IMG/VR virus record: IMGVR_UViG_2724679140_000008
DNA length: 33,770 nucleotides
Source of the DNA: a virus
Taxonomy: Duplodnaviria > Heunggongvirae > Uroviricota > Caudoviricetes
Direction: 5' to 3' (one strand)
This document shows positions 2,976 to 31,573 of the stretch, piece by piece. Numbering within the stretch: the stretch's first letter is position 1; each line of letters starts with the position of its first letter. The notes beneath the pieces were generated by a model. That model was not told the DNA's origin. It did no database searches and was given only the letters and a program-made list of their open reading frames with translations. The position numbers were made by a program, and so were the translations under genes.

Positions 2976-2979
2976 GGGA

Positions 2980-3678: not shown

Positions 3679-3687
3679 CAGAGCCTC

Positions 3688-8582: not shown

Positions 8583-8592
8583 TACCACCTCC

Positions 8593-8994: not shown

Positions 8995-9569
8995 CGGGTC
9001 AGCCATAACCTCAGTTGTTGTTTTAGTGCATACCCCAGCTGTTTCGGCATTTCCGCAGCAATGATGTGGTCGCGGGCATCTTCAAATGCCTGTGTCAGCG
9101 GTCCGGACAGCGGGATTTTCACCACATCAATGGGGTAACGATGTTTGCCATCAATACGTCGCATCACATGCCAGCGACCATTCGCCAGTTGCTGAATAAA
9201 CGCATCCCGGAAAAGATATTTACCCACCTTCAGCACACTGCCACGGTACTGCAGTTTTCCACCACGCCGGGCCAGTCTGACCCGGGCTGTCCCCAGCTTA
9301 ATGGCGGGCAGATTGCCCCGGTTAACGCGGATCCTGACCGTCATTTTTCCTGACGGACTGGCTTTAAACACCAGGACACGCTGACGTACCAGTTTCAGGG
9401 GGATCCCTTTCACCTGGTTATCTCCCGCAACGGTATTCCCGGCAACCTGCCGGGTGGCAACCGAGACCGCTTTCTGTGCCACACGGTTTATCGCCCATGC
9501 GCTGGCCTGTGGCACCATACGGGTATCAAGGCTGTTCAGATTGCGGATGGCATTCTCAAGCCCCTTCAT
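8991..9569 (-). CDS. Z: Tail completion protein Z
   Basis: 192 aa, the same length as lambda gpZ, with a similar C-terminus (RWHVMRRIDGKHRYPIDVVKIP...LGYALKQQLRLWL). Confidence 0.88.
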   Translation of the reverse strand: MKGLENAIRNLNSLDTRMVPQASAWAINRVAQKAVSVATRQVAGNTVAGDNQVKGIPLKLVRQRVLVFKASPSGKMTVRIRVNRGNLPAIKLGTARVRLARRGGKLQYRGSVLKVGKYLFRDAFIQQLANGRWHVMRRIDGKHRYPIDVVKIPLSGPLTQAFEDARDHIIAAEMPKQLGYALKQQLRLWLTR

Positions 9570-9580
9570 CCCACACCTCT

Positions 9581-9856
9581 TTACTCAATAAAGATCATTG
9601 GCTTACCGTTAAAACGTTCATGCCGTGTGACCGTCCATTGTTGTCCGTCATAAACAACGCGATCCCCGCGCCGTGGGCGGTATCCCGAAGAAAACACCAC
9701 CAGAGAGACCGCAAGTCCGGACAGAGCATTCAGCTCTGCCAGTGTTTCTCCCGGGATCACAGTCATATCGACATCATTAATCGAGGCTGTCTTTCCCATC
9801 TTTCTGACCGTGATCGCATCCATACGCGCTGCCAGCCGGGAAAAGGGATCAGACAT
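9581..9856 (-). CDS. Head-tail connector protein, FII-like (Gifsy-2-type)
   Basis: 91-aa protein sitting between the head genes and Z, where lambda has FII. Assignment is by position and size; I do not recognise direct sequence similarity to lambda FII. Confidence 0.6.
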   Translation of the reverse strand: MSDPFSRLAARMDAITVRKMGKTASINDVDMTVIPGETLAELNALSGLAVSLVVFSSGYRPRRGDRVVYDGQQWTVTRHERFNGKPMIFIE

Positions 9857-10172
9857 TGAGTTTTACCGGCACTTCTTCTGCACTGGTTCCGGCATCTGCC
9901 CAGACAACCCCGACCAGCGGCTCAGAGCCGCTGTTAGTCAGCTGAACTTTTCCTGACTTCAGATAAACCTTCTTACCCGTTTTCATGTCATCCGTTTTCA
10001 GCTTAGGCAGCATAAACACACCTTCGGTTATGCCGTCGCCTGTTTCTCCCTGTGGAATATCGGTCAGCGCCACCGCAAAAACATCCCCCACCTGCACCAG
10101 ATCTCCGCTGCTGATGGCTGCACTGGCAACAATCGCCACCGTTTTTCCTTCTTCTACAAAATTCTTTGCCAT
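9849..10172 (-). CDS. DUF2190-type small head protein (putative head decoration/stabilisation)
   Basis: MAKNFVEEGKTVAIVASAAISSGDLVQVGDVFAVALTDIPQGETGDG...; typical partner of ClpP-capsid fusion head modules. Start at the ATG after GGAG; the ORF track extends to 10217. Confidence 0.65.
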   Translation of the reverse strand: MAKNFVEEGKTVAIVASAAISSGDLVQVGDVFAVALTDIPQGETGDGITEGVFMLPKLKTDDMKTGKKVYLKSGKVQLTNSGSEPLVGVVWADAGTSAEEVPVKLNV

Positions 10173-10258
10173 AACTGTCTCCGCACAGCCCCGTTCAGGG
10201 GCTGATTTCAGGTACAAAAAAAGCCCTTACGGGCCATCAGAGTTGTTGTCTGCGACGT

Positions 10259-12217
10259 TTACGCCGTACATTTCACCAGGCCGCGGTGATCAACTGGCGC
10301 AACACCAGCGTCAATACGCACTTTCGTTGTCACGCCATCCACACTGAAGCCCTCCATCTGATCAATATATGGCGTATCCACACCGTTGAGATAAGCCACT
10401 TCAATCGTATCGGAGCCTTTGGACGCAGCCAGGTAGAAGGTGGTCTGGCTGTTATCATCAAGACGAGGCTCTGCAATAACGGTCGCAAAATCTTTCACCG
10501 GGTTAATAATACCGGCGTTAATGTCAGCCCCCTTGACACTTGAGGAGCGAATGACCTGGTTAGCAACAGACTCCATCGCCGTCGGTACCAGTACGAACGC
10601 AGGACGAATATTCAGATGACGCTCACCCTCTTTCTGAACGCGCATCAACTGGCGGGCTTTATCCAGCGATGCCACGTCCATTGCCGCGCTCTCCAGTACG
10701 TTTGCATGTTTCGCTTTATCGAACAGACTTACATTATCTGTGGAGATTTTCGGGTTAGACGTCAGAATGGCATAAACCAGATCGGCAATAGTGGATTTCG
10801 CCGCACGGCCCAGCTTCATCGGGACATCGGTCAGCATATTCAGATCATCATTGATAATGGCCTGACGGGTGATACTGAACAGCTCGCCATAGGTCGCCAG
10901 TGCAATAGTGGCCTGTTTATCTCCGGTGGTGACGTATTTATATTCTGCCCCTTCACGCACCTGACGCAGAGCACTGAAGCCCCCCATACCCACACGATGG
11001 GCAATTTTAAAATCAGACAACTGACCTTTCCGCGTCCACTGTTCATAGGTTTCAGGGGCATCTTCCCAGCCCTGCAGAATGGCTTTGTTCGCAACATCCA
11101 GCAGAATATTACCGAAGTCAGACGTACTGTGTGTGAACGCCGCACCGACCATCTGCATCGGGTTATAACTGGAAACACCAATACCACGTTCAGTCAGTGA
11201 CATACGGGCATATTCACGCAGGGTCATCCCGTTGTAGACATTATCACGTTCAGTTTTTTCAAACCCGGCGCGCGCCATCAGCGCCTGGCGGATCCCGTCC
11301 CCCACAAAATTACCGTTACCGGCATAAATATGAGCCGGGGTATTTTTATTGGATGGCGTGGACTCGCGCCCCATCTCGTTCAACAGCTTTTCGCGGGCCT
11401 GCTCCAGCGAACATTCAGGATCGGCAAGACACTGAGCCTGCAACGACTGATAACGCCCGCCAAACATGGCAAACAGATCATTAATACCGTTTACACGCGC
11501 TTTTTGCTCTGCCAGGACCTGCGCACGGATGCTGTTTTCATCCACCACGGGTGCTGCTGCCTGCACTGGCGTCCGGGAGGCTGCAGGTCCATCATCCTGT
11601 ACGCGTGGAGCACTGTTGCGTGGCGGAGTAATCATATTTCGAATGGATTCCGGCATCTTTTTAAATTCCTCTGTACGTTTTGACTGAATACATGCCATTG
11701 CCTTAACGGCTGGTGTCACCTGATCAGCAAATCCCTGTGCCAGACATTCGGCACCGGACATCCAGGTCTCATCCGCCAGCATGGCAGCAATTTCATCGGT
11801 GGTTTTCCCGGTTTTCTGTGCATAAGCGGGTAACAGAACCGCCTCAACTTTATCGAGCAGGTCGGCATAGGTGCGCATGTCCTCCGCATCACCGCCCGTA
11901 AAGCCAAATGGTTTATGAATCATCATGAAGGAGTTTTCCGGCATAATGACCGGGTTTCCCACCATCGCAATGACCGACGCCATTGACGCCGCCACACCGT
12001 CGACATAAACGGTAATGGACGCACCATGTGTTTTCAGTGCATTAAAAATGGCGATGCCTTCAAAGACATCGCCACCCGGTGAATTAATATGGAGATTAAT
12101 GTGGGTGATATCGCCCAGTGCATTCAGATCACTGATAAACTGCTTCGCCGTAACACCCCAGAAACCAATCTCGTCATAAATATAAATATCCGCGTCACTC
12201 TGGTGACCTGCCTGCAT
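10259..12217 (-). CDS. Prohead protease (ClpP/S14-like) fused to major capsid protein
   Basis: The N-terminal region has a ClpP-like motif (HINLHINSPGGDVFEGIAIFNALK...SITVYVDGVAASMASVIAM) followed by a long capsid-like C-terminal domain. Start taken at MQAGHQSDADIYIYDEIGFWG shortly after the portal stop; the ORF track extends to 12478. Confidence 0.8.
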   Translation of the reverse strand: MQAGHQSDADIYIYDEIGFWGVTAKQFISDLNALGDITHINLHINSPGGDVFEGIAIFNALKTHGASITVYVDGVAASMASVIAMVGNPVIMPENSFMMIHKPFGFTGGDAEDMRTYADLLDKVEAVLLPAYAQKTGKTTDEIAAMLADETWMSGAECLAQGFADQVTPAVKAMACIQSKRTEEFKKMPESIRNMITPPRNSAPRVQDDGPAASRTPVQAAAPVVDENSIRAQVLAEQKARVNGINDLFAMFGGRYQSLQAQCLADPECSLEQAREKLLNEMGRESTPSNKNTPAHIYAGNGNFVGDGIRQALMARAGFEKTERDNVYNGMTLREYARMSLTERGIGVSSYNPMQMVGAAFTHSTSDFGNILLDVANKAILQGWEDAPETYEQWTRKGQLSDFKIAHRVGMGGFSALRQVREGAEYKYVTTGDKQATIALATYGELFSITRQAIINDDLNMLTDVPMKLGRAAKSTIADLVYAILTSNPKISTDNVSLFDKAKHANVLESAAMDVASLDKARQLMRVQKEGERHLNIRPAFVLVPTAMESVANQVIRSSSVKGADINAGIINPVKDFATVIAEPRLDDNSQTTFYLAASKGSDTIEVAYLNGVDTPYIDQMEGFSVDGVTTKVRIDAGVAPVDHRGLVKCTA

Positions 12218-12230
12218 CCTGAACCAGGAA

Positions 12231-13739
12231 TTATTCTTCGGACTGGTCGTCGGTGTGCTGCGGCTCCTGTCGTTTCGTTGCGGCACTGCTGCCTCCTTTA
12301 TCACTGGCCGGATCGGTATCAAATACCAGATCCAGCTTGCGGTTTTCATCAATTTCGGCCTTGCGCCGACGTTTGACATCATCCGGATTACGACCACCTG
12401 CACGTACCCAGTCTGATTCTGTCGCCGCTCCACCACGAATCTGAATTTTCCAGGCCTCAGCCTCCTTAACAGGGTCAATCCACGGCATCACCGGTCCGGA
12501 ATACACCGCGGTATACAGTGAAGAACGGTCCAGATCGCGGGGTAGCCTGATAACACCGGATGCCACAGCCTGTTTCAGCCAGGCACGGTACATCGGGCGG
12601 GTGACGGCACCAATAAACCAGTCCTGCAGGATCAGGTAGCCATCAGTAGATTCAACCAGCTCCTGACGCTGGGCGCTGTAAGTGCCGTTATAGTTGCGCG
12701 CTGTACTGGAAAAACTCAGACGACTGCCCGCAGCCACGGCACGCAACTGACCATTACGAAAAGTTTCAAGGTTAGGATTGGGGCGATCCGACTTCACCAT
12801 TCCGATTTCTTCGCCGGGTTTCAGATCGTCGTAAATAATGCCTGGCTGAATGGTAAGCTCGCGTTCATTCTCCTTGCTGTCATTACCATCCGTTTCATAG
12901 CTCTGTCCGTCGCCTTTCCGGATGTACATCCCCAGAGCAGCGGCGATCCTTGCTGCAGTCAGCTCAGAATCTTCATACTCTTTCAGAGCACTGAGGCGGA
13001 TCAGCACACCGGACAACAAAGACGTCCCGCGCATCTGGTGCAGACGGCGAACAAATTTAAGATGCAGCATTCGCTCTGCATCCACTTCTTTGGTTTCCAT
13101 CTGCCGCCCGGATACGGGACGGCTTTTATACACCAGATATTTTTCGGGACGCCCCCAGTCATCAACAAACACGCCCTGATTCAGCCTGTTGCTCTCATCA
13201 CTGGTCATGGGAATAAAGTCCGGCTCGAGCGCCTCCAGCCAGAAATGAACACCGGCAGAAGGCGTCAGGCTGTTTATGCGCCCGGAAACCATCTGGGCAA
13301 ACACCTCACCATCGCGCAGCCAGGTACGCAGCATCAGACGTTCCAGCATCGGACGGGTAAACTGCCCGGTGACCTCCGGACTGACAGACCATTCACTCCA
13401 TCGGGTACGTATCTCCGCTGCCAGATCACGGGCAATGGCCCCATTGCGTAATACCGGATGTGGCTCGACAATAATCCCGTTTTTCCCCACCACCCGTTCT
13501 TCCAGCTTGTCAAATACACCAATGACCAGATCGTGGTTGTTATCAAGGTAACGGGCCTGCTCACGTAACGACACGGCCCCGTACTGGCTTAACTGGTCGG
13601 CAGTTCGGCTCTCCCGTCGGGCTTTGTGTGTCCGCGTCGTTTTTACGGCCTCATAAGCCTGGATCACCGCGCGGGAACGCAGCCTTGCCGCTTTCCATCC
13701 TGGTGAAAAAACGCCAATCACATCATCAAGAATTGCCAT
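12231..13739 (-). CDS. Portal protein
   Basis: About 500 aa at the portal position between the W-like gene and the protease/capsid gene; called from synteny and size, direct similarity to lambda gpB not established by eye. Start at MAILDDVIGVF..., overlapping the upstream stop in TGATG with GAGG upstream; the ORF track extends to 13811. Confidence 0.85.
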   Translation of the reverse strand: MAILDDVIGVFSPGWKAARLRSRAVIQAYEAVKTTRTHKARRESRTADQLSQYGAVSLREQARYLDNNHDLVIGVFDKLEERVVGKNGIIVEPHPVLRNGAIARDLAAEIRTRWSEWSVSPEVTGQFTRPMLERLMLRTWLRDGEVFAQMVSGRINSLTPSAGVHFWLEALEPDFIPMTSDESNRLNQGVFVDDWGRPEKYLVYKSRPVSGRQMETKEVDAERMLHLKFVRRLHQMRGTSLLSGVLIRLSALKEYEDSELTAARIAAALGMYIRKGDGQSYETDGNDSKENERELTIQPGIIYDDLKPGEEIGMVKSDRPNPNLETFRNGQLRAVAAGSRLSFSSTARNYNGTYSAQRQELVESTDGYLILQDWFIGAVTRPMYRAWLKQAVASGVIRLPRDLDRSSLYTAVYSGPVMPWIDPVKEAEAWKIQIRGGAATESDWVRAGGRNPDDVKRRRKAEIDENRKLDLVFDTDPASDKGGSSAATKRQEPQHTDDQSEE

Positions 13740-20627: not shown

Positions 20628-20723
20628 AGCCTCACCTCCGCACGGAACGGATGGCATAGTTATTATGTGTAGGCTTCCAGACACATCAATCAGAGCCTTA
20701 ATTGATATATATGCTGGAGACGA

Positions 20724-20753
20724 TGCAATATAAAAAGCTCGCCGTAGCGAGCT
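20724..20753 (-). terminator. Intrinsic terminator downstream of the lipoprotein genes and upstream of the holin
   Basis: Minus-strand hairpin AGCTCGC-tacg-GCGAGCT followed by TTTTTATA. Confidence 0.5.
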
Positions 20754-20878
20754 AATAAAATGTATTTCTCTGATATTATGTTTATTTGTATTAGCTCAGA
20801 CTTGACATCACAGGTTTCGTATATAGAACATCATCAAATCTGTCAGTTTGCTATGAATGAGATATAGTAATTGAAGAG

Positions 20879-21274
20879 CTAACCTCGCATGTCAAAGCCA
20901 GATTTCTGAAAATCTCTGTAGACTTCCGGATTGTTGAAGGCCGGAAATTTGGCTTTATGAGCTGCGGACTTTATCGCTTCGCAATAGGCTTTATCACCGT
21001 TACTGGTAGATATTTTTAACGCCGTGCCATCCTGAGAGAATTCCATATGCAACCTGCATTTTTTCCCTTTCCAGTTATGCGGCTCATCAAGTTTGGCATT
21101 AATTGCAGCTCTGATTCCCCGCGCTTGCGCCCCCCATTCATCCTGATCATCCCAGCGTCCTGAACTGCAACTACCTGTAGCAGTAGTTTTGTGGCAATCT
21201 GAAGGGTGTAAAGGTGTGCATCCCGCAACAAAACCGACCCAAAAAGTCAACATAACGATTTTCTTTAATCCCAC
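20879..21274 (-). CDS. Outer-membrane lipoprotein with TolA C-terminal (domain III)-like domain, paralog 2
   Basis: GTG start after GGAG; signal peptide with lipobox (MGLKKIVMLTFWVGFVAGC, Thr at +2). C-terminal ...KGKKCRLHMEFSQDGTALKISTSNGDKAYCEAIKSAAHKAKFPAFNNPEVYRDFQKSGF aligns with the TolA domain III pattern, including both Cys. Confidence 0.8.
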   Translation of the reverse strand: MGLKKIVMLTFWVGFVAGCTPLHPSDCHKTTATGSCSSGRWDDQDEWGAQARGIRAAINAKLDEPHNWKGKKCRLHMEFSQDGTALKISTSNGDKAYCEAIKSAAHKAKFPAFNNPEVYRDFQKSGFDMRG

Positions 21275-21424
21275 TTCTTGCTCCTCAATCCATTAAAATC
21301 TCAGCAATAGTAGTTGTTACGTCCGCCACTGGCTCAGAGCTGACTATCCGCTAAATTTAGCTCAGTGCCGTAGTTGTGTCAGAACAAACCTAAGCCGAAA
21401 CCGTTTATTACAAAACAATAAATA

Positions 21425-21853
21425 TCAGGGTTTAAAATCCAGCACCCCATTTTGAAATACTTTATATACTTCCGGCGAAGGGGGGGCAGGTATATCAGCA
21501 TTCTTTATCGCATTCATCGCTTCACGACATAAATCGAGGTCTCCACTTTCTCTTTTAACCTCCAGTAGAAGGCCATTCGGGGCCATATGCATTCTCAGTG
21601 TACACTCTTTTCCTGAATACTTACTCGCATCCCCGAACTGTTTTTCGATGGCGCTCTTGATTTGATGGGCATACAGACGGATATCCTCACTAACATCAGA
21701 AGTACGTTCAGATGAACTCACATACTGTGTCTCTATTGCTTTATCGGAGTAATATGATGTACGGTCATGATAATTTGTCGATACAGCATCAGTGCACCCG
21801 ATAATAATCCCACTAATAATCAACGTAAGAATTGATGCGCTACGAAAACCCAT
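21425..21853 (-). CDS. Outer-membrane lipoprotein with TolA C-terminal (domain III)-like domain, paralog 1
   Basis: Signal peptide with lipobox (MGFRSASILTLIISGIIIGC, Thr at +2); GAGGA RBS. C-terminal HQIKSAIEKQFGDASKYSGKECTLRMHMAPNGLLLEVKRESGDLDLCREAMNAIKNADIPAPPSPEVYKVFQNGVLDFKP closely matches the E. coli TolA C-terminus as I recall it (...QIKSAIESKFYDASSYAGKTCTLRIKLAPDGMLLDIKPEGGDPALCQAALAAAKLAKIPKPPSQAVYEVFKNAPLDFKP). Confidence 0.85.
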   Translation of the reverse strand: MGFRSASILTLIISGIIIGCTDAVSTNYHDRTSYYSDKAIETQYVSSSERTSDVSEDIRLYAHQIKSAIEKQFGDASKYSGKECTLRMHMAPNGLLLEVKRESGDLDLCREAMNAIKNADIPAPPSPEVYKVFQNGVLDFKP

Positions 21854-21869
21854 TTTTCCTCACATATGT

Positions 21870-21910
21870 CATATAGTAAAGAATTATATATACCGTTGTT
21901 TTGGACGCTC
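21870..21910 (-). promoter_or_regulatory. Candidate sigma70 promoter for the lipoprotein genes
   Basis: Minus strand reads ...TTTGAGCGTCCAAAACAACGGTATATATAATTC about 20-40 nt upstream of the RBS. Unverified. Confidence 0.3.
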
Positions 21911-22386
21911 AAACAGCGAATCAGATCAAATAAAACGCACATTTGTTAACATTTACACAAAGTCTGCGTGGGATATTCTGAAAGAATATCCATAATGTGG
22001 AGAGAATCTATTGAAGTGCATGGTGCCGGGTGCCTCCCGGTGAATTCAGTACCAGCACCTGAATCCGCGATTATCCCATATACCTACTCGCTGATTGCCC
22101 CTCCGCACAGGGGGATTCACCATGCCAGTTTCTTTTAACAAACTCCCCGCAAACCAGAGAACAGTCAACCGCCTGAATTGTGAAGTATTTAAAAATTTCT
22201 CCCGCTAACTGATACCCGGCTAACAGTCTGGCGTTTTCTTTTTCAGCAACGGGAAAGCAACAACCACCACACCCGCCACCAGCACACTGTCAGCCAGCAC
22301 TGACATTATCCGGCTGCTGCAATGCCATTCACAAAAACAGTAAGCAATCACTTTTTACCGTAACAGGTGATAATCCAGATATGTAT

Positions 22387-22740
22387 CTACCCCAGATGAG
22401 TAATCCGAAGTTCATCCATACCACAGGTCCTGGCTATTCTGTTGTACTCCTGAACAAGAGCAAATAATTCTGAATTAGCAACCATGAACTCATCGCAAAC
22501 CCTCTGTATAGCATCACTATTCAGAATAATAACGTCTCTTCCCGAAAGACGATCAGGAGCACAGAACAAAACTGTCAAACGGCTGAAGGCCTTTGCTCGT
22601 GCTGCATTGACTATATCAATACGCTGCCTAAGGATGAAACACCCCGACGCCTCATCAATATTCACTCTACCCACACCATATGAATGATAAATATTTAATG
22701 CTGAAAAAACCATTAGACCGTATAACAAACACTCAATCAA
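22387..22740 (-). CDS. Hypothetical protein between the tRNAs and the lipoprotein genes
   Basis: ORF-track ORF of 117 aa with a TTG start and no convincing Shine-Dalgarno; internal ATG at about 22713; no recognisable motif. Confidence 0.3.
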   Translation of the reverse strand: MIECLLYGLMVFSALNIYHSYGVGRVNIDEASGCFILRQRIDIVNAARAKAFSRLTVLFCAPDRLSGRDVIILNSDAIQRVCDEFMVANSELFALVQEYNRIARTCGMDELRITHLG

Positions 22741-22850
22741 TACTTAACAGAACTTTTATTTTTGACAAACATATTATGTTTTCAACAATATCCTGAGCCA
22801 GGTATATTCCAGTATAAGGCTCTGCCGGAAGGAATCTGGAAGAATGAATA

Positions 22851-22927
22851 TGGCGCGCTGTACTGGATTCGAACCAGTGACCGATTGCTTAGAAGGCAAT
22901 TGCTCTGTCCGGCTGAGCTAACAACGC
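22851..22927 (-). tRNA. tRNA-Arg (anticodon UCU)
   Basis: Minus-strand sequence GCGTTGTTAGCTCAGCCGGACAGAGCAATTGCCTTCTAAGCAATCGGTCACTGGTTCGAATCCAGTACAGCGCGCCA: 7-bp acceptor stem, anticodon loop CU-UCU-AA, GGTTCGAATCC T-arm, encoded CCA. Coordinates anchored on the spurious ORF 22762..23049. Confidence 0.9.
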
Positions 22928-22940
22928 TGAATACCGATAA

Positions 22941-23020
22941 TGGACCGCCATCGGGGACCCGCCCCCGCACCAACAACCCTGTTATCGTGTCGTCTGCTCT
23001 TCCTGATAAGCTAATGGCGG
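22941..23020 (-). ncRNA. Degenerate tRNA-like element (pseudo-tRNA)
   Basis: Minus strand CCGCCAT-TA-...-CGGGG-GCGGGT-CCCCG-ATGGCGG-T-CCA: perfect 7-bp acceptor stem, U8/A9, a T-arm-like hairpin, discriminator and CCA, but no canonical anticodon arm or T-loop. Confidence 0.3.
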
Positions 23021-23027
23021 TTTGTGA

Positions 23028-23103
23028 TGGTGGCCCTTGCTGGATTTGAACCAGCGACCTGGCGATTATGAGTCGCTCGCTCTCACCACTGAGCTAAAGG
23101 GCC
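23028..23103 (-). tRNA. tRNA with CAU anticodon (Ile2-like, ileX/ileZ type; Met not excluded)
   Basis: Minus-strand sequence GGCCCTTTAGCTCAGTGGTGAGAGCGAGCGACTCATAATCGCCAGGTCGCTGGTTCAAATCCAGCAAGGGCCACCA, which closely resembles E. coli ileX as I recall it. Confidence 0.88.
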
Positions 23104-23139
23104 GGGAGCAGAATAATAACGGTCCGTAATTAATTCCGC

Positions 23140-23166
23140 AATAAAAAACCCGCTCGGCGGCGGGTT
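23140..23166 (-). terminator. Intrinsic terminator downstream of the late promoter (tR'-like)
   Basis: Minus strand AACCCGC-CGCCGA-GCGGGTT followed by TTTTTT, about 60 nt downstream of the candidate promoter. Confidence 0.55.
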
Positions 23167-23206
23167 GTAGAAACTCTTCTAACGTCAGGCATAAAAAGCC
23201 CATCAT

Positions 23207-23246
23207 TATGACGAATTTACCACAGATTCCGGAAAAATCAACCTTG
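23207..23246 (-). promoter_or_regulatory. Candidate late promoter (pR'-like) just downstream of Q
   Basis: Minus strand TTGATT-N17-TAAATT immediately after the Q stop; placement as in lambdoid pR'/qut. Confidence 0.4.
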
Positions 23247-24068
23247 TTACCTAGTTACCTTTTTTAACTGCCGCTCAGCCCATGCTTCTTCAATATCAAA
23301 CCGGGTCACCAGCGCATCATAGAATTTCTTAACTGTTTTTTCCCATGACGCGCGTGTTATCTGGTTTGTCACCTCGCATATAGCATTAAATGCCTCCGTT
23401 GATGGTAGTCTTTCATAGCCACGACCACCACAACGCTGGCAGTCTCTGATAACAGGCATACCACGTTTTACCGACTCTTCACGGTGAATGGCGACACCAC
23501 GCCCACGGCAATCCTTACAGGCGGTGGAAACCTCACCCTTTCCGCCACACTCCGGACAGGCAACTTTTACCACCTCCCTGACTTTTTTCCATTCTTCCCA
23601 GTAAGACGGATACACACCTTTCGTACACTTTGCCCATACCGGCGGCTTACCATCCGGATACTGGACCTTGTTTGTAAAAACTATGCTTTCAATAAATTTT
23701 TCCCCATAGCAACAAGGGCACTGCTTTTTACTCGCTGCGCTGCGGGCATAATCCTCAAAAGCGTACGAAGCCATAATGCGCATCACTACCGGTTTTATTT
23801 CTGCCGGAAGTTTTCTCAACGCCGCCACACGATCGCACCGACTGAGTGCATAATCTGCCAGTAATTCTGTTGCCCGCGCCCTGTCATTCATACTGATGCC
23901 CATTTTCCCCAGGAACGCAGAAAAACCCATCTCAGCCCGATTCTGTGTCATGCCCTGCGCGGCCATCACATCAGTGATACTCAGCGCATCTTTTGACGTT
24001 GAGGCCGATGCATCGGTCAGGCCAGGGGATTTTGGGGAGTAGTATTTCGGTAAATCTTCCAGTTTCAT
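23247..24068 (-). CDS. Late-gene antitermination protein Q
   Basis: 273 aa with Cys-rich zinc-binding clusters (CPCCYGEKF...CPECGGKGE...CKDCRGRG...CQRCGGRG), upstream of a late promoter/terminator pair. Confidence 0.85.
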   Translation of the reverse strand: MKLEDLPKYYSPKSPGLTDASASTSKDALSITDVMAAQGMTQNRAEMGFSAFLGKMGISMNDRARATELLADYALSRCDRVAALRKLPAEIKPVVMRIMASYAFEDYARSAASKKQCPCCYGEKFIESIVFTNKVQYPDGKPPVWAKCTKGVYPSYWEEWKKVREVVKVACPECGGKGEVSTACKDCRGRGVAIHREESVKRGMPVIRDCQRCGGRGYERLPSTEAFNAICEVTNQITRASWEKTVKKFYDALVTRFDIEEAWAERQLKKVTR

Positions 24069-24082
24069 TTTTTGACCTGCTC

Positions 24083-24439
24083 TTAATGCATTATGGGGTA
24101 AATCTTCACCCCCAGACGTCCACCAGATACTGGCTGACCACGAACGATATTGATTTCATCAAACTGCTCATCGTCCATTAACACTCCCGCATGCGTCAGC
24201 GCATCCAGCGGTGCTTTCAGGATATTGTCCAGGTCGCGACGACGCTTATCCGGTGGCTCTGCAATCACCTTTATCGCCAGCCTTCCGGACAGGCTTAATT
24301 TCAGCCGCTGCTGGCGAACAATAAGCGCCACAGCCCGGCGATAACGCTTTCCCTCCTCCGAGATAAAATATGTGCTGCCACGGCGTCGCCAGTAAGTGTT
24401 CACCGTCGGCGGGTAAGGTAAAACCAAATCTATGAGCAT
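24083..24439 (-). CDS. rusA: Holliday-junction resolvase RusA
   Basis: 118 aa; PPTVNTYW...DKRRRDLDNILKAPLDAL... matches the RusA catalytic core (DxxRRDLDN). Confidence 0.9.
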   Translation of the reverse strand: MLIDLVLPYPPTVNTYWRRRGSTYFISEEGKRYRRAVALIVRQQRLKLSLSGRLAIKVIAEPPDKRRRDLDNILKAPLDALTHAGVLMDDEQFDEINIVRGQPVSGGRLGVKIYPIMH

Positions 24440-24451
24440 CAGTCACCTCTT

Positions 24452-25540
24452 TTACCCAAGCACGCCAGTTGCAAAGGCGTGATCAAGAAAACGAAAAATT
24501 AAATCAACCTGAGAACCATGCTTTTCTTCGAACGCCAGAGGATCCGCATGAAGCTCGTTGTGATGCTCCCGACACAGCGGTAGCGTGAAAATATCGTGAG
24601 ATTTTGTCCCCATTCCGCCCTGACCATGACCAATCAGGTGATGGGGATCGTCGGCTGGCTTACCACAACACGCACACGGCTGTGTCTTCACCCAGCGTTT
24701 GTATTTCTCGTTAACCCAGCGGCGACGTTTAGGTCGTTTCATGAAAGATTCCGGAGACTCAGGATCAACGGCAATGCTGACCACCGTCTTTTCCTGTGGT
24801 GGGTTCTGTTGCTGGTGGGCGTGAGGCAGCGGCGCAAGATTTTTTGTGCGCTGTTTCAGTATGCTGGTGGCGGTCTGCTCTCCCGGTACGATGTCGCTTT
24901 CACGGTACATTGAGCGGATTTTTTCCGCACGCAACCCCAGCGAACGACGTAATACCGCTTCCGGTAGCGCGTCCGCCACCTGATTGCAGACCGCCCACCA
25001 GGATAATTCAGCCAGAGATAATTCCCGCTCCTGCGTACCGCTTATTGCGTGACGGATGACGTCAATCACCCATGCTGTCAGATTTTGTTGAGCAAGCAGC
25101 TCCAGTGATTCCGATGTCTGGTCACGCAGTTGGTTGTCGCAGTGCCAGCACAACACCATTGCGCCGGTACCATAACGGTGAATGACTGTTTCAGTGTGAT
25201 GGTAATCGCCATTAGGCCACTGGCAGGATGTAACATGACGTAATAGCCAGTCGGACAATGCGCCAACGCCGCCAGCAGCACGAATCACCCGTTCGTTACT
25301 AAAAAACGGCAGCAATGTTTTGTCTTCCGCCAGCGGCTGGCGAACGGCAGGAACGACTCCGGATGGCAGATTACGCATGCTTTTTGGTTCCGGTTCCACC
25401 AGCACTCGAGGATTATGAAATATCTGTATGGATTCACGGCCCGGCTTAAGGACCACCAGCCCAAGCTCAGGCACCAGAACAGGTCTAAGTAATACCCGCA
25501 CGTTACCTCCAGATCCGTTGCTGGAAAGTGCGGGACGCAC
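24452..25540 (-). CDS. ydfU: YdfU-like DUF968 protein with an HNH-like Cys/His motif
   Basis: 362-aa ORF with a GTG start; C-terminal ...QPCACCGKPADDPHHLIGHGQGG...CREHHNELH. The true start is uncertain because the first 38 nt overlap the upstream ORF. Confidence 0.75.
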   Translation of the reverse strand: MRPALSSNGSGGNVRVLLRPVLVPELGLVVLKPGRESIQIFHNPRVLVEPEPKSMRNLPSGVVPAVRQPLAEDKTLLPFFSNERVIRAAGGVGALSDWLLRHVTSCQWPNGDYHHTETVIHRYGTGAMVLCWHCDNQLRDQTSESLELLAQQNLTAWVIDVIRHAISGTQERELSLAELSWWAVCNQVADALPEAVLRRSLGLRAEKIRSMYRESDIVPGEQTATSILKQRTKNLAPLPHAHQQQNPPQEKTVVSIAVDPESPESFMKRPKRRRWVNEKYKRWVKTQPCACCGKPADDPHHLIGHGQGGMGTKSHDIFTLPLCREHHNELHADPLAFEEKHGSQVDLIFRFLDHAFATGVLG

Positions 25541-26315: not shown

Positions 26316-26384
26316 TTACTCCTCAGGTTCGTAAGCTGTGAAGACAGCGACCTCCGTCTGGCCGGTTCGGATTCGTACCTCGCA
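26316..26384 (-). pseudogene. hokD: hokD/relF remnant (3' fragment only)
   Basis: Minus strand encodes CEVRIRTGQTEVAVFTAYEPEE-stop, the Hok-family C-terminus, but the frame is closed by TGA two codons upstream and no frame encodes the TM helix. Confidence 0.6.
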
Positions 26385-26443
26385 GTGTCAACGCAAAGCA
26401 GAAGTGTCACCTTCGGTGCGAAACAGAGATGTCATGCTTTGGT

Positions 26444-26731
26444 TCAGAGAATGCGTTTGACCGCCTCGCTATATACTTCCGAGCGTTCTCTTTTCCCAAC
26501 AGAAATCACGAAAACGACAACTTTCTCGTCTATAACCTGGTATACAAGGCGATAGCCTGAAGACCGGAGCTTAATCTTGTAACAATCAGGCATACCACGG
26601 AGCTTGTTTGCTTCAATCCGGGGTGACTCAAGTACTTCAACCAGCTTCTTTTTCAACTGTTCACGTACCGTCGAGCCCAGCTTTCGCCATTCCTTTAGTG
26701 CCCGCTCGTCAAAATCCAGAAAATACGCCAT
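26444..26731 (-). CDS. relE: RelE mRNA-interferase toxin
   Basis: 95 aa, MAYFLDFDERALKEWRKLGSTVREQLKKKLVEVLESPRIEANKLRGMPDCYKIKLRSSGYRLVYQVIDEKVVVFVISVGKRERSEVYSEAVKRIL, essentially identical to E. coli RelE. Confidence 0.97.
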   Translation of the reverse strand: MAYFLDFDERALKEWRKLGSTVREQLKKKLVEVLESPRIEANKLRGMPDCYKIKLRSSGYRLVYQVIDEKVVVFVISVGKRERSEVYSEAVKRIL

Positions 26732-26970
26732 CAGAGTTCATCCAGCGTCACACGTACTGGCTTAGGATTACGAAGCCGTTCTTTCACTATCTCCACAAGT
26801 TCAGCATCTTCATCACTCAGGAGTGTCTGTTTGAACGGCAAGCGTTCATTGTCAGCGATATACTCGAGCATGAGACGAAGCGCTTCAGAAGGAGTTACAC
26901 CCATTTTTTCAAGCGCGGCGTAAGAACGCGCTTTAAGTTCATCGTCAATACGCAGGTTAATGCTACCCAT
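26731..26970 (-). CDS. relB: RelB antitoxin
   Basis: 79 aa, MGSINLRIDDELKARSYAALEKMGVTPSEALRLMLEYIADNERLPFKQTLLSDEDAELVEIVKERLRNPKPVRVTLDEL; its stop overlaps the relE start. Confidence 0.97.
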   Translation of the reverse strand: MGSINLRIDDELKARSYAALEKMGVTPSEALRLMLEYIADNERLPFKQTLLSDEDAELVEIVKERLRNPKPVRVTLDEL

Positions 26971-26974
26971 GTCT

Positions 26975-27035
26975 TACACCTCTTGTAATTACAAATGTCA
27001 TTACAAGTATCGCACTACAACATGCTTAGGGCAAG
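26975..27035 (-). promoter_or_regulatory. relBE promoter/operator (relO-like inverted repeats)
   Basis: Palindromic TTGTAATTACAA and TGTCATTACAAG elements immediately upstream of relB. Confidence 0.5.
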
Positions 27036-27300
27036 TCACGAAGGAAGTCAGAAAGTAGTCGTAAGAACGGTGATCACTGTCCGCTTTGTGCCAGGAGCAG
27101 CCATTGCTAAGTCCATCCTGTATTGTGCAGGTCAGCTCGCTTTTAAAGAGTCCGGCCATCATCTTACTGGTACAGACACCATATACTTTGTGACGGTCAG
27201 GCTACATATGCACAACTCAACTTATTCATCTATTTTTTGCTTTAGCATGTCAGTGTTGCTTTCTCGTCGGCGGGTGAGCGGTGACCTGACCTGTCGATAA
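26995..27300 (+). CDS. YdfV-like hypothetical ORF
   Basis: 101-aa plus-strand ORF between relB and flxA, the same size and position as ydfV in Qin; it overlaps the relB operator and its coding status is doubtful. Confidence 0.25.
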   Translation: MSLQVSHYNMLRASHEGSQKVVVRTVITVRFVPGAAIAKSILYCAGQLAFKESGHHLTGTDTIYFVTVRLHMHNSTYSSIFCFSMSVLLSRRRVSGDLTCR

Positions 27301-27452
27301 AGGAACGTAGCACGTTTTATGCAACACCCGCATGCGGCAGAAAATTATTGCCGAACGTTTACCCCTGTCAACAAGCTTTACTTTCTGAGGCGCGCCAGCC
27401 CGCGAGGAAAACAATCTGAACATCAAACAATTAATGACACAAGAAATACGAT

Positions 27453-27479
27453 TAAAGATTTTTTTGTGCATGCCGATAG
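27453..27479 (+). promoter_or_regulatory. FliA (sigma28)-type promoter of flxA
   Basis: TAAAGATT-N11-GCCGATAG against the sigma28 consensus TAAAGTTT-N11-GCCGATAA, about 25 nt upstream of the flxA RBS (AAGGAG). Confidence 0.65.
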
Positions 27480-27502
27480 TGCTTTTTTAAAAGGAGAAAT
27501 CT

Positions 27503-27835
27503 ATGTCTGTCACAATTCAGGGAAATACCTCAACCGTTATTTCAAACAACTCCGCCCCGGAAGGAACATCAGAAATAGCCAAAATCACAAGACAAATTCA
27601 GGTGCTGACTGAAAAGCTTGGGAAAATCTCATCGGAAGAGGGGATGACGACACAGCAGAAAAAAGAAATGGCTGCATTGGTACAGAAGCAAATTGAAAGC
27701 CTCAGGGCTCAACTGGAGCAGTTGTTAAGGCAGCAGGCAGAGAAAAAGAATAAAGACGCGACAGTTCAGCCTGATAAAAAAGAAGAGAAAAAAGACGATA
27801 CAAATACCGCTGGCACCATTGATATTTACGTCTAA
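27503..27835 (+). CDS. flxA: FlxA (FliA-regulated prophage protein)
   Basis: 110 aa, MSVTIQGNTSTVISNNSAPEGTSEIAKITRQIQVLTEKLGKISSEEGMTTQQKKEMAALVQKQIESLRAQLEQLLRQQAEKKNKDATVQPDKKEEKKDDTNTAGTIDIYV. Confidence 0.95.
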   Translation: MSVTIQGNTSTVISNNSAPEGTSEIAKITRQIQVLTEKLGKISSEEGMTTQQKKEMAALVQKQIESLRAQLEQLLRQQAEKKNKDATVQPDKKEEKKDDTNTAGTIDIYV

Positions 27836-27849
27836 GTGACAGCCGTATT

Positions 27850-27873
27850 GTGGCCCTCATCGGGCCACTTTTC
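27850..27873 (+). terminator. Intrinsic terminator of flxA
   Basis: GTGGCCC-tcatc-GGGCCAC followed by TTTTC, 15 nt after the flxA stop. Confidence 0.55.
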
Positions 27874-28164
27874 GCCATCAGCCTTTTCTTTAAAGACATA
27901 TTATCTTTGTATCATTTCTGATAGTTAACATTACAAGATATAAGTAATGGACGCACTCCCAATTAGTCTATTTAAATCGCCACGAGTTTAACTGACAACC
28001 CATGATCAATTATGAATTGCAACTATTTCTGTAGTCACTTTTGTGGGGACAGTCCACAAAACTGCCAACTTCCGCTTCTTGCTCTTAGCGGACATTAGCA
28101 TAGGCTATTTACCATAACGCCTCATTACGCGCACCGCCCAGACTGACTCAGCGCGTTTCTGGCA

Positions 28165-29680
28165 TATCCCCGGTAAAACAAGTAACAAACCACCCGAAAA
28201 TGAACACCAGAAACGCGACTTAAGAATCTACCCTATGAATGGATATGCACTCAACCGAATCGATCTTGGTTTCAATCTATTTTATCGGGATCAGGCTTCT
28301 TTTTAGGTAACTTCGGGGGCTTAACTTGCTGATGACTTTGCGTTCGGCGCGTAAGCCAGGGATGGTCAGCTTTAGATTTAACATAGTATTTTGAGCGTAA
28401 ATCAATACGGGCATTATCCACTCGTTCATGGACACTCTTTTCATCATCCAGTGGTATAGGCTCCGGGCCATCAACATACTTTTCCCAGCCCAGCGCTTTC
28501 CCGTCATACAGAACGTTAATTTCACCGTCAAAGTTCTCACATACAGTAACAACCGAATGCCTAAGTCGATATCCCCGGCCCTCACTGCGTACCTGAAACG
28601 CACTGCTTTTGTACTGGAAAGTGAGATTTTTAGACAGAACGCGCTTCGCCTGTAGGCTGAAGATATAACCCAGTTCCTCTTCAGAATGGTGCACATCAAG
28701 ATGAGCATTATCAGTAGTACGAGGCGACGTAGCGAACCGGTTGTTATAGGCTTCAATAAAGGTCGGCAACCATGCATTTGCTGTTTCAATATCACTGATA
28801 TTCTGAAGCCGCATTTCTTTGACCAGCCTGTCCTGTAGTGTCTGATTGGCGCGCTCTACCCGCCCTTTTGCCTGCGGGCTGTTGGCATGGATTGGCTCGA
28901 TGCCCAGTGTCTTTATCGCACGAGTGAACTGGGTCAGCTCACCTTCCCGCTCTGGGTTATTTACCCTGAATATACTGTGTCTATCAGAGTAGAGAGCGAG
29001 CGGTACGCCATGATCATTAAGGTAACCCCGGAGGGTTTCCATGTAAGCCCGGGTTGTTTAAGCAGGCACAAAACGCAACGCCATCAACGCACTGGTGGCA
29101 TCATCAATGAAAACGATCAGTGTACATCTGGGGCCTCGATTTTCAAACCAGTCATGAGGTGAGCCATCAATCTGGATCAGTTCACCGTAAGATGGTCGTC
29201 GCATGCGGCGTTGATATATACGGGCAATTTTACGACGGCGTTCACGCCATAACCCCTCTTCTATCATCCACTTTCTGAGAGTTTCAACGGATAAAGATAA
29301 ACCGTGTATCTCGCGCAATTTTTCGCACGCAAACGTAGGTCCAAAATCAGCGTAACGGCCTTTGAGGAGTGAAATTACTGTTGCTCTGAATTCAGTAGAA
29401 AAGGAATTATTAGGACGCTTTCCACGTCGGTGGGAAACCAGACCAGAAGGCCCTTCATTTCTATACCGTTGCACCAGACGTTTAACCTGCCGAATAGAAA
29501 TGCCAATGCGTGCCGCAGCTTGTTCCTGAGTAATATGTCGATTAATTGACTCCTGAATAATCTGAAGTCGGTGGAGTTCCTTATGACTCATCGTAACAGT
29601 CTCTTTGATCATGAAAAATCCCCCAGAGAATTGTCTGGGGACATTTTAGAATGGTTCAAAGGGGACATTACAGCTTGGTG
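28165..29680 (-). mobile_element. Insertion sequence carrying the interrupted transposase (boundaries approximate)
   Basis: A single transposase gene with short flanks; terminal inverted repeats could not be defined confidently by eye. Confidence 0.35.
28272..29612 (-). pseudogene. IS transposase (DDE integrase-core type with N-terminal HTH; IS481/ISNCY-like) interrupted by an in-frame TAA
   Basis: ORFs 29058..29612 (184 aa, HTH) and 28272..29042 (256 aa, catalytic region) are in the same frame (both low ends are multiples of 3) and separated only by a TAA at 29058-29060 plus 5 codons. Read through, they give about 446 aa. Confidence 0.8.
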
Positions 29681-30065
29681 TTAACAATAGCCTGCTTCTC
29701 CTTGCCTTCCGGCACTCGCGACAGATTATGTTTAGACGACTGTCGTAGCGACGTATTTCTCCGTCAGGTAATGACCAGATAAGGTCCGGATCAACCACAG
29801 CAGGTTTCTTCACCTTTGCCCTCGAGAGTTTTTTGCGGGCGTTTTGCCAGTCCTTACGCGCCTGTTCAGACGGGAATAACCCGTAACCAGAGCTGTATAC
29901 ATCGCCACTGGCAACCAGCTCTCTGGCCAGAACGCTCATCAGATATCTTGTTGCCCCAGTTTTAGCTTCCAGTTGTCGTAACGTCTCGCGCCCACTCTGG
30001 CGTACGAGTTCCACCACCTGCCCTTTAATTTTTTCCCGCTCTTCTTGTGTAAAAACTTTTGCCAC
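29646..30065 (-). CDS. Hypothetical early-region protein, possibly C-terminally altered by the IS insertion
   Basis: ORF-track ORF of 139 aa directly downstream of the replication gene; its last codons lie within about 35 nt of the transposase start. Confidence 0.45.
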   Translation of the reverse strand: MAKVFTQEEREKIKGQVVELVRQSGRETLRQLEAKTGATRYLMSVLARELVASGDVYSSGYGLFPSEQARKDWQNARKKLSRAKVKKPAVVDPDLIWSLPDGEIRRYDSRLNIICRECRKARRSRLLLTPSCNVPFEPF

Positions 30066-30105
30066 AAGTCCTCCTGAACATTACTTTATACCCTAAAATC
30101 AACAC

Positions 30106-31125
30106 TTATCCCCTGAAACCAGGCGGAATTTCTGTATCCGGTTCAGAAATATGATTCACACAACGCTTTACAGGTGAACGTCCCAGGCGGATGACCAGTT
30201 CGTCCCATTTTTCGCGGAGTTTTGACGGGCTCATGATGTTTTTTACCCAGAATTGATCTCGCTGTACCCGACCAAACATTTCGCAAATTTGTCTGTGGCT
30301 TCTGCCATCCAGCATCCGCATTGTGCGCACGTCATTGGCCCAGGCTGTCCAGTTAGGCTCTTTTGGTCGCATGATCTCTCCATCGTCGCTGGCAGCCTGT
30401 TCGTAAAGGTTCACGATCCGCCCCCAAATCCACTGCGCACACGCCAAATCCTCCCTGCTACCCCACTGGCGTTTTTTCGCACTAAACACAACCGCGTCGG
30501 GGTTCCGGGTTAAAAAATCCTGTTCAGCGGTCTGCGGGTCCGGTTGCGAAGCTTCCGGACGAAAAGTGTTTTTATTCTCTGTAGTAATCTCTGTTGTATT
30601 CTCTGTAAGATCATCAGGCCATTTTGACCCGATGACATTGGGTCGTTTTGAACCAATGGAGCGTTTCATTTTGACCTCTTCCATCGTGTCATTTTGACCT
30701 GATGGAGCGGCGCATTTTAAACCGATGGATTCGCTCAATTTGCCACCATCTAAAAGCTCGCTCCCGTAGTTGATCGTGTAGAAATTGGTCATATCGCGCT
30801 TTGATTTATTGAGCTTTTCACAACGCAAAAGCCCCAGCGTTTTCAGACTTGCAAACGCGCGCTTTAACGTTGACTCTGACCAGAATGGGAACTGTTCCAG
30901 CCATTGTTCCGTTGTGTTGTAAATCCAGCGAACACCATCACATTCCATGCCGGAATTGGTATCTCTCAACCAGTAATGCAACTGCTGCAACACAATGGCT
31001 TCATTTAAGCCAATCTTCATCGCAAGCTGTGTGTTTATAACCAGTGGGCGTTCAGCAAAAAGAAGGCTCATAATTCCATCCAGCTTTTTGTTGGTATTGC
31101 TGTCGATACGCAAGTTTGAAAGCAA
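30106..31125 (-). CDS. Replication initiation protein, phage O-like
   Basis: 339-aa ORF downstream of the cro-like gene, with a winged-helix-like N-terminal region (AIVLQQLHYWLRDTNS...TLKRAFASLKTLGLLR). The start codon is uncertain. Confidence 0.7.
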   Translation of the reverse strand: MLSNLRIDSNTNKKLDGIMSLLFAERPLVINTQLAMKIGLNEAIVLQQLHYWLRDTNSGMECDGVRWIYNTTEQWLEQFPFWSESTLKRAFASLKTLGLLRCEKLNKSKRDMTNFYTINYGSELLDGGKLSESIGLKCAAPSGQNDTMEEVKMKRSIGSKRPNVIGSKWPDDLTENTTEITTENKNTFRPEASQPDPQTAEQDFLTRNPDAVVFSAKKRQWGSREDLACAQWIWGRIVNLYEQAASDDGEIMRPKEPNWTAWANDVRTMRMLDGRSHRQICEMFGRVQRDQFWVKNIMSPSKLREKWDELVIRLGRSPVKRCVNHISEPDTEIPPGFRG

Positions 31126-31573
31126 TTGCTTTTTCTATAAGTTCGTCAGTTTCACGATCCACTACGGCAGGATCAGCAAAAAGCAGTCCGGACTCCACCA
31201 CATCGCCATATTCTTTGTTTAACCCGGCGATCATGTACGTGATGCTTTTTCCGTCACTAATTTCACGATACAACCTGAAATCATTAATCCGAATAGCCTC
31301 CATAATTGCAGGCACTAGCGCCGTGAACTTTTCACGCTTATCCCTGGTGTCGATAGCCTTCCAGCGTTCGAATATCTTCACTCGATTAACGCCAAGTGCT
31401 CGCTGATCAACCGCGCCACCTTCATCTGTGACACGCTGAACATCGATGTTCGGGCGCTCTTTCAAAGCCCAGAATGCTTCAGTGATTAATATCGTCGCCT
31501 GCTCCTGTGTCATTCCTGGTCGACATATCCAGGCATCCAGAGCCTCACGAGCCTGTTCAGGAGTGATTTTCAT
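31052..31573 (-). CDS. Hypothetical early-region protein
   Basis: ORF-track ORF of 173 aa between dicC and the replication gene; no recognisable motif. Confidence 0.45.
   Translation of the reverse strand: MKITPEQAREALDAWICRPGMTQEQATILITEAFWALKERPNIDVQRVTDEGGAVDQRALGVNRVKIFERWKAIDTRDKREKFTALVPAIMEAIRINDFRLYREISDGKSITYMIAGLNKEYGDVVESGLLFADPAVVDRETDELIEKAIAFKLAYRQQYQQKAGWNYEPSFC

Follow-up and report, generated by a model that had tools for sequence, protein, structure and literature searches.

A transposase gene split by a stop codon in a lambdoid prophage probably belongs to a relBE-carrying unit transposon of the IS1202 family inserted in a hok locus

Introduction

The insertion sequence (IS) ISEsa1 is listed by ISfinder in the ISNCY category, IS1202 group, and belongs to the IS1202 family of Hall and co-workers (PMC10132070), where it is described as an element of 1609 bp with terminal repeats matching at 15 of 22 positions and with "no TSD detected" (TSD, target site duplication). 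Here we analyze an ISEsa1-type transposase gene that is split by an in-frame stop codon in a 33,770-nt stretch of viral DNA (Caudoviricetes; IMG/VR record IMGVR_UViG_2724679140_000008), which is called "the window" throughout and is numbered from its first letter. An initial reading made from the letters of the window (the sequence-only reading) had taken the gene for that of a self-contained IS, inserted beside flxA in a prophage with a possibly truncated replication module. Our comparison with related loci suggests instead that window positions 26386–29686 are a decayed copy of an IS1202-family unit transposon, of which ISEsa1 represents the transposase (left) arm. We assign a probability of about 85% to this interpretation.

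Unit transposons are not foreign to this family. The transporter IS (tIS) described in PMC10132070 carry one extra open reading frame (ORF) of unassigned function and generate duplications of 5 bp; ISKpn21 adjoins dif-like sites, and ISKpn65 clearly does so in one of three examples. Neither the true ends of ISEsa1 nor its duplication are described in PMC10132070 or elsewhere in the literature searched, which did not extend to ISfinder and TnCentral, and no account of a relBE-carrying transposon or of hok targeting was found there.

Ends and arms of the element

The element has a length of 3301 bp (26386..29686, minus strand) and consists of a left inverted repeat (IRL), a transposase arm, a cargo region, a relBE arm, and a right inverted repeat (IRR). 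Its ends were set by the target duplications that flank orthologous and independent copies. When aligned directly at these duplication-defined ends, IRL (29657..29686, minus strand; 5'-TGTTAACACCAAGCTGTAATGTCCCCTTTG) and the reverse complement of IRR (TGTCAACGCAAAGCAGAAGTGTCACCTTCG; IRR at 26386..26415, minus strand, ending in ...GCTTTGCGTTGACA) match at 22 of 30 positions. The conserved left arm of 1616 bp (28071..29686, minus strand) corresponds roughly to the 1609-bp ISEsa1 of ISfinder (PMC10132070, Table 7). It is followed by the variable cargo (27099..28070), which here is flxA (27503–27835, plus strand), and by a conserved right arm of 713 bp (26386..27098, minus strand) with relB (26731–26970), relE (26444–26731), and IRR. 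The relB and relE ORFs are full length (79 and 95 aa) and their orthologs are annotated as RelB and RelE, as expected for a type II toxin–antitoxin system; the conservation of this arm includes a palindromic stretch, TTGTAATGACATTTGTAATTACAA, in the upstream operator region of relBE. The window matches Escherichia coli strain GB089 across the whole element and, apart from the stop codon and a 99-bp deletion, is about 99.95% identical to it. The claim of a self-contained IS beside flxA is not supported, because flxA and relBE lie within the same transposon, the right end of which is downstream of relE. That the transposase gene lies between flxA and the replication module is literally true, but the inserted DNA runs 74 nt past the transposase start, up to position 29686.

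Homology to plasmids spans window positions 28071–29714. Three different right flanks start after ...GAAGCGGA, and the left flank is related in nearly all copies. In plasmids that have other DNA after the 1.6-kb arm, this DNA proved to be cargo, which is followed by relBE, then by ...GCTTTGCGTTGACA, and then by a repeat of the plasmid's own left 15 nt. The cargo slot is filled in the plasmid copies by 2–10.5 kb of other genes (e.g., the ncr/chr metal resistance genes). The 713-bp relBE arm was found in 784 plasmid records and, among the matches listed, homology stops at the tip of IRR unless the arm itself is truncated.

The 1.6-kb block was dropped as a mobile unit for want of a convincing inverted repeat at its boundaries: when both ends of the 1644 bp shared with plasmids were searched for such repeats, including pairs 1609 bp apart, the best result was a match at 16 of 24 nucleotides, in unrelated places. 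The 28 nt at 29687–29714 had been considered as an IS end, but their high copy-to-copy variability and their continuity with mok/hok sequence identify them as target DNA. If the end of the relBE arm is the functional right end, then the listed right end of ISEsa1 is internal, and it would be clear why no duplication was seen for ISEsa1 in the IS1202 family survey of 2023.

A 24-bp site with 7-bp inverted arms occurs exactly twice per element, at the end of the transposase arm and at the start of the relBE arm, with the cargo exactly between the two copies. The site at the boundary of left arm and cargo (28070..28093) is of the type GTCCGCT-N10-AGCGGAC; the second one, at the boundary of cargo and right arm (27079..27102), is degenerate. 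The cargo-side half-sites vary with the cargo, and no further site was found within 10.5 kb of cargo (0.04 expected from shuffled sequence). The sites may serve site-specific cargo exchange or may be sub-terminal binding sites of the transposase.

Target duplications and hok leaders

The left target duplication of the window, GGAGAAGCAGGCTAT (15 bp; 29687..29701, minus strand), comprises the Shine–Dalgarno sequence of hok and the AT of its ATG; the right copy has been deleted. In GB089, the element of 3301 bp has this duplication, GGAGAAGCAGGCTAT, on both sides. Other duplications were found for a 7082-bp element on a Klebsiella pneumoniae plasmid (GGAGAAAAAGGCTAT), a 12843-bp element with ncrABCY and chrBA as cargo on a Phytobacter plasmid (GGAGAAGTCAGCTAT), a 6093-bp element on an Enterobacter adelaidei plasmid (GGAGAAGAAGGCCAT), and a 4487-bp element in Kluyvera sp. 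(GATGTTAGCCATG), and a decayed chromosomal copy of 2575 bp at a non-hok site has a duplication matching at 13 of 15 positions. Because the duplicated sequence differs by target, these appear to be independent insertions of the whole unit. As features of the IS1202 family, we used imperfect terminal repeats of about 22–29 bp and duplications of 3–5, 16–17, or 27–28 bp. With terminal repeats of 22/30 and duplications of 13–15 bp (16 bp with an ambiguous A) in six independent elements, the unit was assigned to this family.

The empty site is preserved in phage HannyBb, whose hok locus is uninterrupted. When this phage is compared to GB089, homology resumes downstream of relE, and 15–16 nt of hok leader are found on both sides of the 3.3 kb. 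On its left, the element is flanked by the leader of a gene for a Hok toxin, of which the final 28 nt or so (TGCCGNAAGGCAAGGAGAAGNAGGCNAT) are far more variable than the element and close with the hok Shine–Dalgarno sequence and the first two letters, AT, of the start codon. In a sample of contigs with one genome per species, 12 of the 15 readable left flanks were hok leaders, which were of several types, one being inverted. Together with the plasmid copies, the hok flanks represent about ten leader types, and in all but one of these the element is inserted behind the AT or ATG with which hok begins; in the remaining leader, the insertion point is 11 nt further in. A Hok-family toxin gene is annotated directly after IRR in both of the two plasmids examined. 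The window itself does not have a complete hok with mok, sok, and leader: a leader remnant of 19–28 nt is found to the left and the last 70 nt of hokD to the right.

Two groups of plasmid copies deserve mention. Enterobacter asburiae IncF plasmids carry the same version of the cargo, flxA-ydfV-relB, in an element inserted in the plasmid hok leader. Because these plasmids share the element variant with the E. coli prophage, it appears to have moved between the prophage and plasmids of another genus. The Phytobacter plasmid pMRY16-398_1 (locus 716–13557) carries a 12.8-kb version whose arms enclose genes for resistance to nickel/cobalt (ncrABCY) and chromate (chrBA); it is located within hok in a leading region of the F plasmid type, where it adjoins psiB-psiA.

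The split transposase gene

The transposase gene (28272..29612, minus strand; ISEsa1 type, IS1202 family) has 446 codons, of which codon 185 (Glu) has been changed to TAA. The premature stop is at 29058..29060 (minus strand; tta on the plus strand), with the mutated base at window position 29060. It separates two minus-strand ORFs (29612..29058, 184 aa, and 29042..28272, 256 aa), which are in one frame and have only TAA and five sense codons between them, as had been noted in the sequence-only reading. Read straight through, the stretch has 1341 nt, which is the exact length of the gene for the intact 446-aa transposase WP_004196353.1 from plasmids. A helix-turn-helix is encoded in the 184-aa fragment and an integrase core domain (rve) in the 256-aa fragment. 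Against the NCBIfam model NF033594 ("ISNCY family transposase"; curated cut-off 250 bits), the fragments score 221 and 217 bits at model positions 1–167 and 175–365, and the intact relative WP_004196353.1 scores 465.5 bits, as expected for an IS1202-type transposase. Database sequences with which the region shares more than 99% identity carry the annotation "IS1202-like element ISEsa1 family transposase." An ISEsa1-type region is found at the same chromosomal place in about 790 complete E. coli genomes and also on many Enterobacteriaceae plasmids.

The comparison with an uninterrupted copy, which had been proposed as a check, was made with the WP_004196353.1 gene. There are four nucleotide differences: G553T, which changes Glu185 from GAA to TAA, one silent change, P413S, and K445I. 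The ortholog from E. coli O26:H11 strain 11368 has the silent change, P413S, and K445I, and the stop is absent. Codon 185 is GAA in both orthologs that were read directly (O26:H11 11368 and GB089) and in all intact relatives. Each of the eight relatives compared has one uninterrupted 446-codon ORF, and the window keeps the same frame throughout, with a single TAA. The earlier view that this is a nonsense pseudogene and not an orfA/orfB frameshift design thus holds. Among 795 complete E. coli genomes which have the stretch, none has an exact match to a 61-mer centered on the stop, the best match being one mismatch in 791 records. Conservation of the stop among homologs, as would be expected for recoding, was not seen, with GAA in every other copy read. 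The lack of an exact match together with GAA in the relatives indicates that the stop is a private G→T nonsense mutation, or a base-call error, and not a conserved recoding signal; stop codon read-through, which had been left as an alternative, finds no support in these data.

The predicted catalytic triad consists of D149, D210, and E253. D149 was placed via the motif IQIDGS, and D210 and E253 via an alignment with a retroviral integrase; the sequence search of the PDB returned only a marginal match to a retroviral integrase (E = 0.0099), which was used solely for placing the second D and the E. Because the stop falls between D149 and D210, neither fragment would be catalytic, and an active enzyme is not to be expected from the stop allele. 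It is conceivable that the element of the window, which has both terminal repeats, can be mobilized in trans. A transposase gene with a private stop represents routine genome decay and says nothing on phage replication. In PhiR42_1, the transposase (locus 4603–5916) is annotated as two ORFs, and the element also lacks 27 bp near its left end; this transposase seems to have decayed independently of the nonsense codon in the window.

Deletions at the locus and remnants in strain K-12

Several stages of the locus are represented by sequenced genomes. In HannyBb and mEp460_ev081, the site is empty, with the Ren-like gene, accessory genes, and mok/hok. It is occupied and otherwise intact in PhiR42_1 (ECOR13 host) and Shigella flexneri SFBU0723, which have the full mok leader, the transposon, the duplication, and hok. 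The next stage, to which the window and about 790 E. coli genomes belong (GB089 and O26 among them), has lost 1.6–2 kb between two copies of TGCCG(G/A)AAG, of which one lies in the 3' end of the Ren-like gene and the second in the leader of hok. Only the window was found to have the stop codon and the 99-bp deletion, and a deletion corresponding to window 28457–31293 is characteristic of K-12 strain MG1655.

The 1.6–2 kb of missing DNA held the 3' end of the Ren-like gene, a methyltransferase fragment, small ORFs, and mok/sok, and it contained no replication genes. What is left of the hok leader beyond the duplication (29702..29714, minus strand) includes the 9-bp microhomology TGCCGGAAG (29706–29714), where the Ren-like gene is fused to the leader. 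Because the fusion point is within a 9-bp microhomology of both parents, it indicates a microhomology-mediated deletion that is unrelated to transposase action. The resulting Ren-like/DUF977 ORF of 139 aa (29646..30065, minus strand) is native from codon 1 to about codon 120, and its last 19 or so codons and its stop stem from the hok leader and IRL; the Ren-like gene of PhiR42_1 is annotated with 140 aa. The sequence-only reading had the IS abut this ORF, which is literally correct, but the ORF ends inside the inserted DNA, having lost about 20 native codons.

At the other end, the 3' remnant of hokD (26316..26385, minus strand) adjoins the element at the junction 26385|26386 of a 99-bp deletion. 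In comparison to GB089, O26, and K-12, the left edge of the deletion is at the tip of IRR or 1 nt off, and the right duplication and nt 1–86 of hokD, including its first 28 codons, are gone. An 80-nt query across the junction returned only the undeleted form among the E. coli matches listed, although such a query cannot count deleted alleles because the search joins both halves. We infer that the deletion is a transposase-mediated adjacent deletion, in which case the enzyme must have been active at some time in the lineage of the window.

E. coli K-12 retains the sequence corresponding to window 26386–28456, which comprises the right arm, flxA, and about 61 codons from the 3' end of the transposase gene, together with the right duplication and an intact hokD. 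It lacks window 28457–31293 and with it most of the transposase, IRL, and the Ren-like and O-like genes; this deletion extends from about codon 385 of the transposase into a YdaT-like gene, of which ydfX is the 5' stub. The K-12 protein "YdfW" corresponds to the last 49 transposase codons in frame (window 28272–28421). The organization indicates that relBE-hokD and ydfW/ydfX of K-12 ("intK," Qin prophage) are remnants of the same insertion event. The uninterrupted transposase genes of O26 and GB089 are labeled as pseudogenes "missing C-terminus" by PGAP because ydfW has been kept as a separate gene.

Replication module and phage context

Outside of the transposon, the early genes are arranged on the minus strand in the order Cro-like, YdaT/cII-like, O-like, and Ren-like/DUF977. 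The O-like replication initiator (30106..31071, minus strand; 321 aa; phrog_391, E = 1e-92) is apparently intact, and 314 of its 321 residues are identical to those of the HannyBb protein. The replication block of 1.9 kb is 96.5–98% identical in HannyBb, mEp460_ev081, and PhiR42_1, and in all three the O-like gene is directly followed by the Ren-like gene. The sequence-only reading had correctly stated that no P-like gene follows the O-like gene: a P- or DnaC-like loader is neither present in the window region nor annotated in HannyBb (a complete genome of 45 kb), mEp460_ev081, or PhiR42_1. Its suggestion that the module may be truncated was not borne out, because HannyBb and mEp460_ev081 share the identical gene order without P. 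The same order in the relatives indicates that the absence of P is normal for this type of module, and the replication genes show no sign of truncation at the sequence level. The 3.3-kb insertion lies between these genes and Q, where it might be polar on late transcription.

The last 20 or so residues of the O-like protein (...EPDTEIPPGFRG; 30106–30168) have a weak match to the DnaT C-terminus (NF002770, E = 0.0034, far below cut-off), and one phage record names this protein "Primosomal protein I." The DnaT-like tail might hint at how a module without P recruits host replication proteins.

The window is collinear with HannyBb in its structural, lysis, and early regions, where the identity is 96–99%. 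The two termini of the linear HannyBb record come to lie side by side in the window (16047|16048), so that the prophage is collinear across the ends of that record. Window 20655–24480, from the Q-like antiterminator to the lysis genes, is without a HannyBb match and contains two tRNA genes (22851–22927 and 23028–23103), one for tRNA-Arg(tct) and one with a CAT anticodon; the latter is assigned to Met by ARAGORN and to Ile by PGAP in GB089.

Alternative explanations

Several observations weigh against our interpretation of the element. The terminal repeats are weak, with a longest exact run of 4–5 nt, and a repeat finder operating with 6-nt seeds did not list them. The duplication can be read as either 15 or 16 bp long, and in one element it has 13–14 bp. 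The window keeps only one copy, so that its status here rests on orthologous copies, and the mobility of the whole unit is deduced solely from comparative anatomy. Three of the 15 readable left flanks are not hok leaders. A base-call error at 29060 would be compatible with the sequence taken alone, and ISfinder, according to PMC10132070, defines ISEsa1 as an IS of 1609 bp. On the strength of that listing and its 15/22 terminal repeats (PMC10132070), and because different cargo segments all start after one and the same base of the left arm, ISEsa1 might be regarded as an autonomous unit of 1.6 kb, the relBE arm being an unrelated neighbor or a solo end and the larger structures accidental composites. 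We consider this very unlikely. No convincing inverted repeat occurs at the 1.6-kb boundary, where PMC10132070 reports no duplication; in every element with both ends in view, IRL and the IRR of the relBE arm are flanked by a matching duplication of the element's own target; the differing right flanks of the 1.6-kb arm turned out to be cargo that ends in the same relBE arm; and among about 25 loci the 1.6-kb arm was never seen alone in an unrelated site with its own duplication.

With respect to the state of the window, sequencing or assembly errors could have produced the stop and perhaps also the 99-bp deletion, in which case the transposase would be as intact as in GB089 and O26, to which end one may point to the missing exact match of the stop allele in the E. 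coli collection, to the junction matches listed, which are all split in two pieces spanning 179 bp (the undeleted form), and to the 99.95% or so of identity with GB089 over the remainder. Single-base substitutions are, however, atypical as errors in finished assemblies, a clean 99-bp deletion from the tip of a transposon has a plausible biological cause, and there is no positive sign of error, so that we regard this explanation as unlikely. Far more remote still is a functional TAA, either with programmed read-through or with a 184-aa DNA-binding fragment that regulates transposition. The fragment does retain its helix-turn-helix domains, and an ATG occurs six codons past the stop, but no Shine–Dalgarno sequence is evident ahead of that ATG, translation in E. 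coli terminates efficiently at UAA when the next base is A, and neither the 795 E. coli genomes nor any other copy examined has the stop. The remaining possibility is that of the sequence-only reading, with a self-contained IS between flxA and the replication genes and a prophage that is replication-dead because its module, lacking a P-like loader, is truncated. It would account for the absence of a P/DnaC-type gene between the O-like gene and the insertion and for the 1.6–2 kb that are missing beside the element relative to HannyBb and PhiR42_1. Given the direct succession of O-like and Ren-like genes in HannyBb, mEp460_ev081, and PhiR42_1, the lack of an annotated loader in the 45-kb HannyBb genome, an O-like protein nearly identical to that of HannyBb (314/321), lost DNA devoid of replication genes, and the position of flxA inside the element, we find it hardly credible.

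Proposed course of events and implications

Under the unit transposon interpretation, the element would have landed in the nin-like region of a lambdoid prophage of the mEp460/HannyBb type, at its hok/mok/sok locus. A DDE transposase would bind both imperfect terminal repeats and make staggered cuts 15–16 bp apart at the Shine–Dalgarno sequence and ATG of hok, so that insertion at this ribosome-binding site and start codon would duplicate 15 bp (16 bp with the ambiguous A). Such an insertion would separate hok from its promoter, mok, and sok, and the copy of the Shine–Dalgarno sequence and ATG on the right would leave hok behind relBE, to be read from the relBE promoter, which is the relBEF arrangement of K-12. 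Later, 1.6–2 kb between the 9-bp microhomologies were deleted, which joined the Ren-like gene to the leader of hok, a G→T change turned transposase codon 185 into TAA, and a deletion of 99 bp from the tip of IRR took away the right duplication together with hokD codons 1–28. The boundaries of the element, its duplications, the empty site, the substitution, and the two deletions were all read from sequences. We infer that hok is recognized as the target and that relBE replaces the stabilizing function of hok/sok that is lost upon insertion. The relBE genes would provide the element and its replicon with a substitute addiction function, and the choice of hok would steer the element to plasmids and prophages. 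A more general scheme, in which ISEsa1 elements are hok-seeking, disable hok/sok on plasmids and prophages, substitute relBE, and swap cargo at the 24-bp sites, with relBE-hokD of K-12 as a fossil, is tentative, and we would rather bet against it as a whole.

If this is correct, the model relBE operon of E. coli is spread as the constant right arm of a transposon, which occurs on hundreds of Enterobacteriaceae plasmids and in some cases also carries genes for resistance to nickel and chromate. The interpretation would explain how hokD lost its control by mok/sok and came to be the third gene of the relBE operon. The translation start of a toxin gene would be an unusual choice of target. The annotation can be corrected as well: YdfW is the tail of a transposase, and intact copies of the gene are mislabeled as C-terminally truncated pseudogenes.

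Comparison with known elements

With the lambda O/P module, the replication module of the window shares its place after cro and a cII-like gene, the O-like initiator, and the Ren-like gene that follows; it differs in that no member of this module type, free phages included, has a P gene. In comparison to relBE-hokD (relBEF) of K-12, which appears to go back to the same insertion, the window keeps regions that K-12 has lost, yet it has the stop and the 99-bp hokD deletion.

The element shares with ISEsa1 a left arm with more than 99% identity, one DDE ORF, an N-terminal helix-turn-helix, and a length of about 1.6 kb for this part. Whereas the published ISEsa1 has 15/22 repeats and no duplication, the putative functional right end is 0.7–11 kb further, after relBE. 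With this right end, the repeats match at 22/30 positions and the duplication is 15–16 bp, which resembles the class of IS1202-family elements with 16–17 bp. Like tISKpn21, tISKpn65, and tISRel10 (transporter IS/unit transposons), the element has one transposase and passengers between a single pair of repeats. It differs from these in that it always ends in relBE and has exchangeable cargo of up to 10.5 kb, duplications of 15 bp, and hok leaders as targets.

IS150 and IS186 are reported (Pedersen and Gerdes 1999) to occur near hokA, hokC, and hokE of K-12, as ordinary IS close to the reading frame and with no evident targeting. What these disrupted hok loci share with the locus described here is that a mobile element uncouples hok from its regulation; in contrast to those cases, the same 15-bp window around the Shine–Dalgarno sequence and ATG has here been hit in about ten hok leaders.

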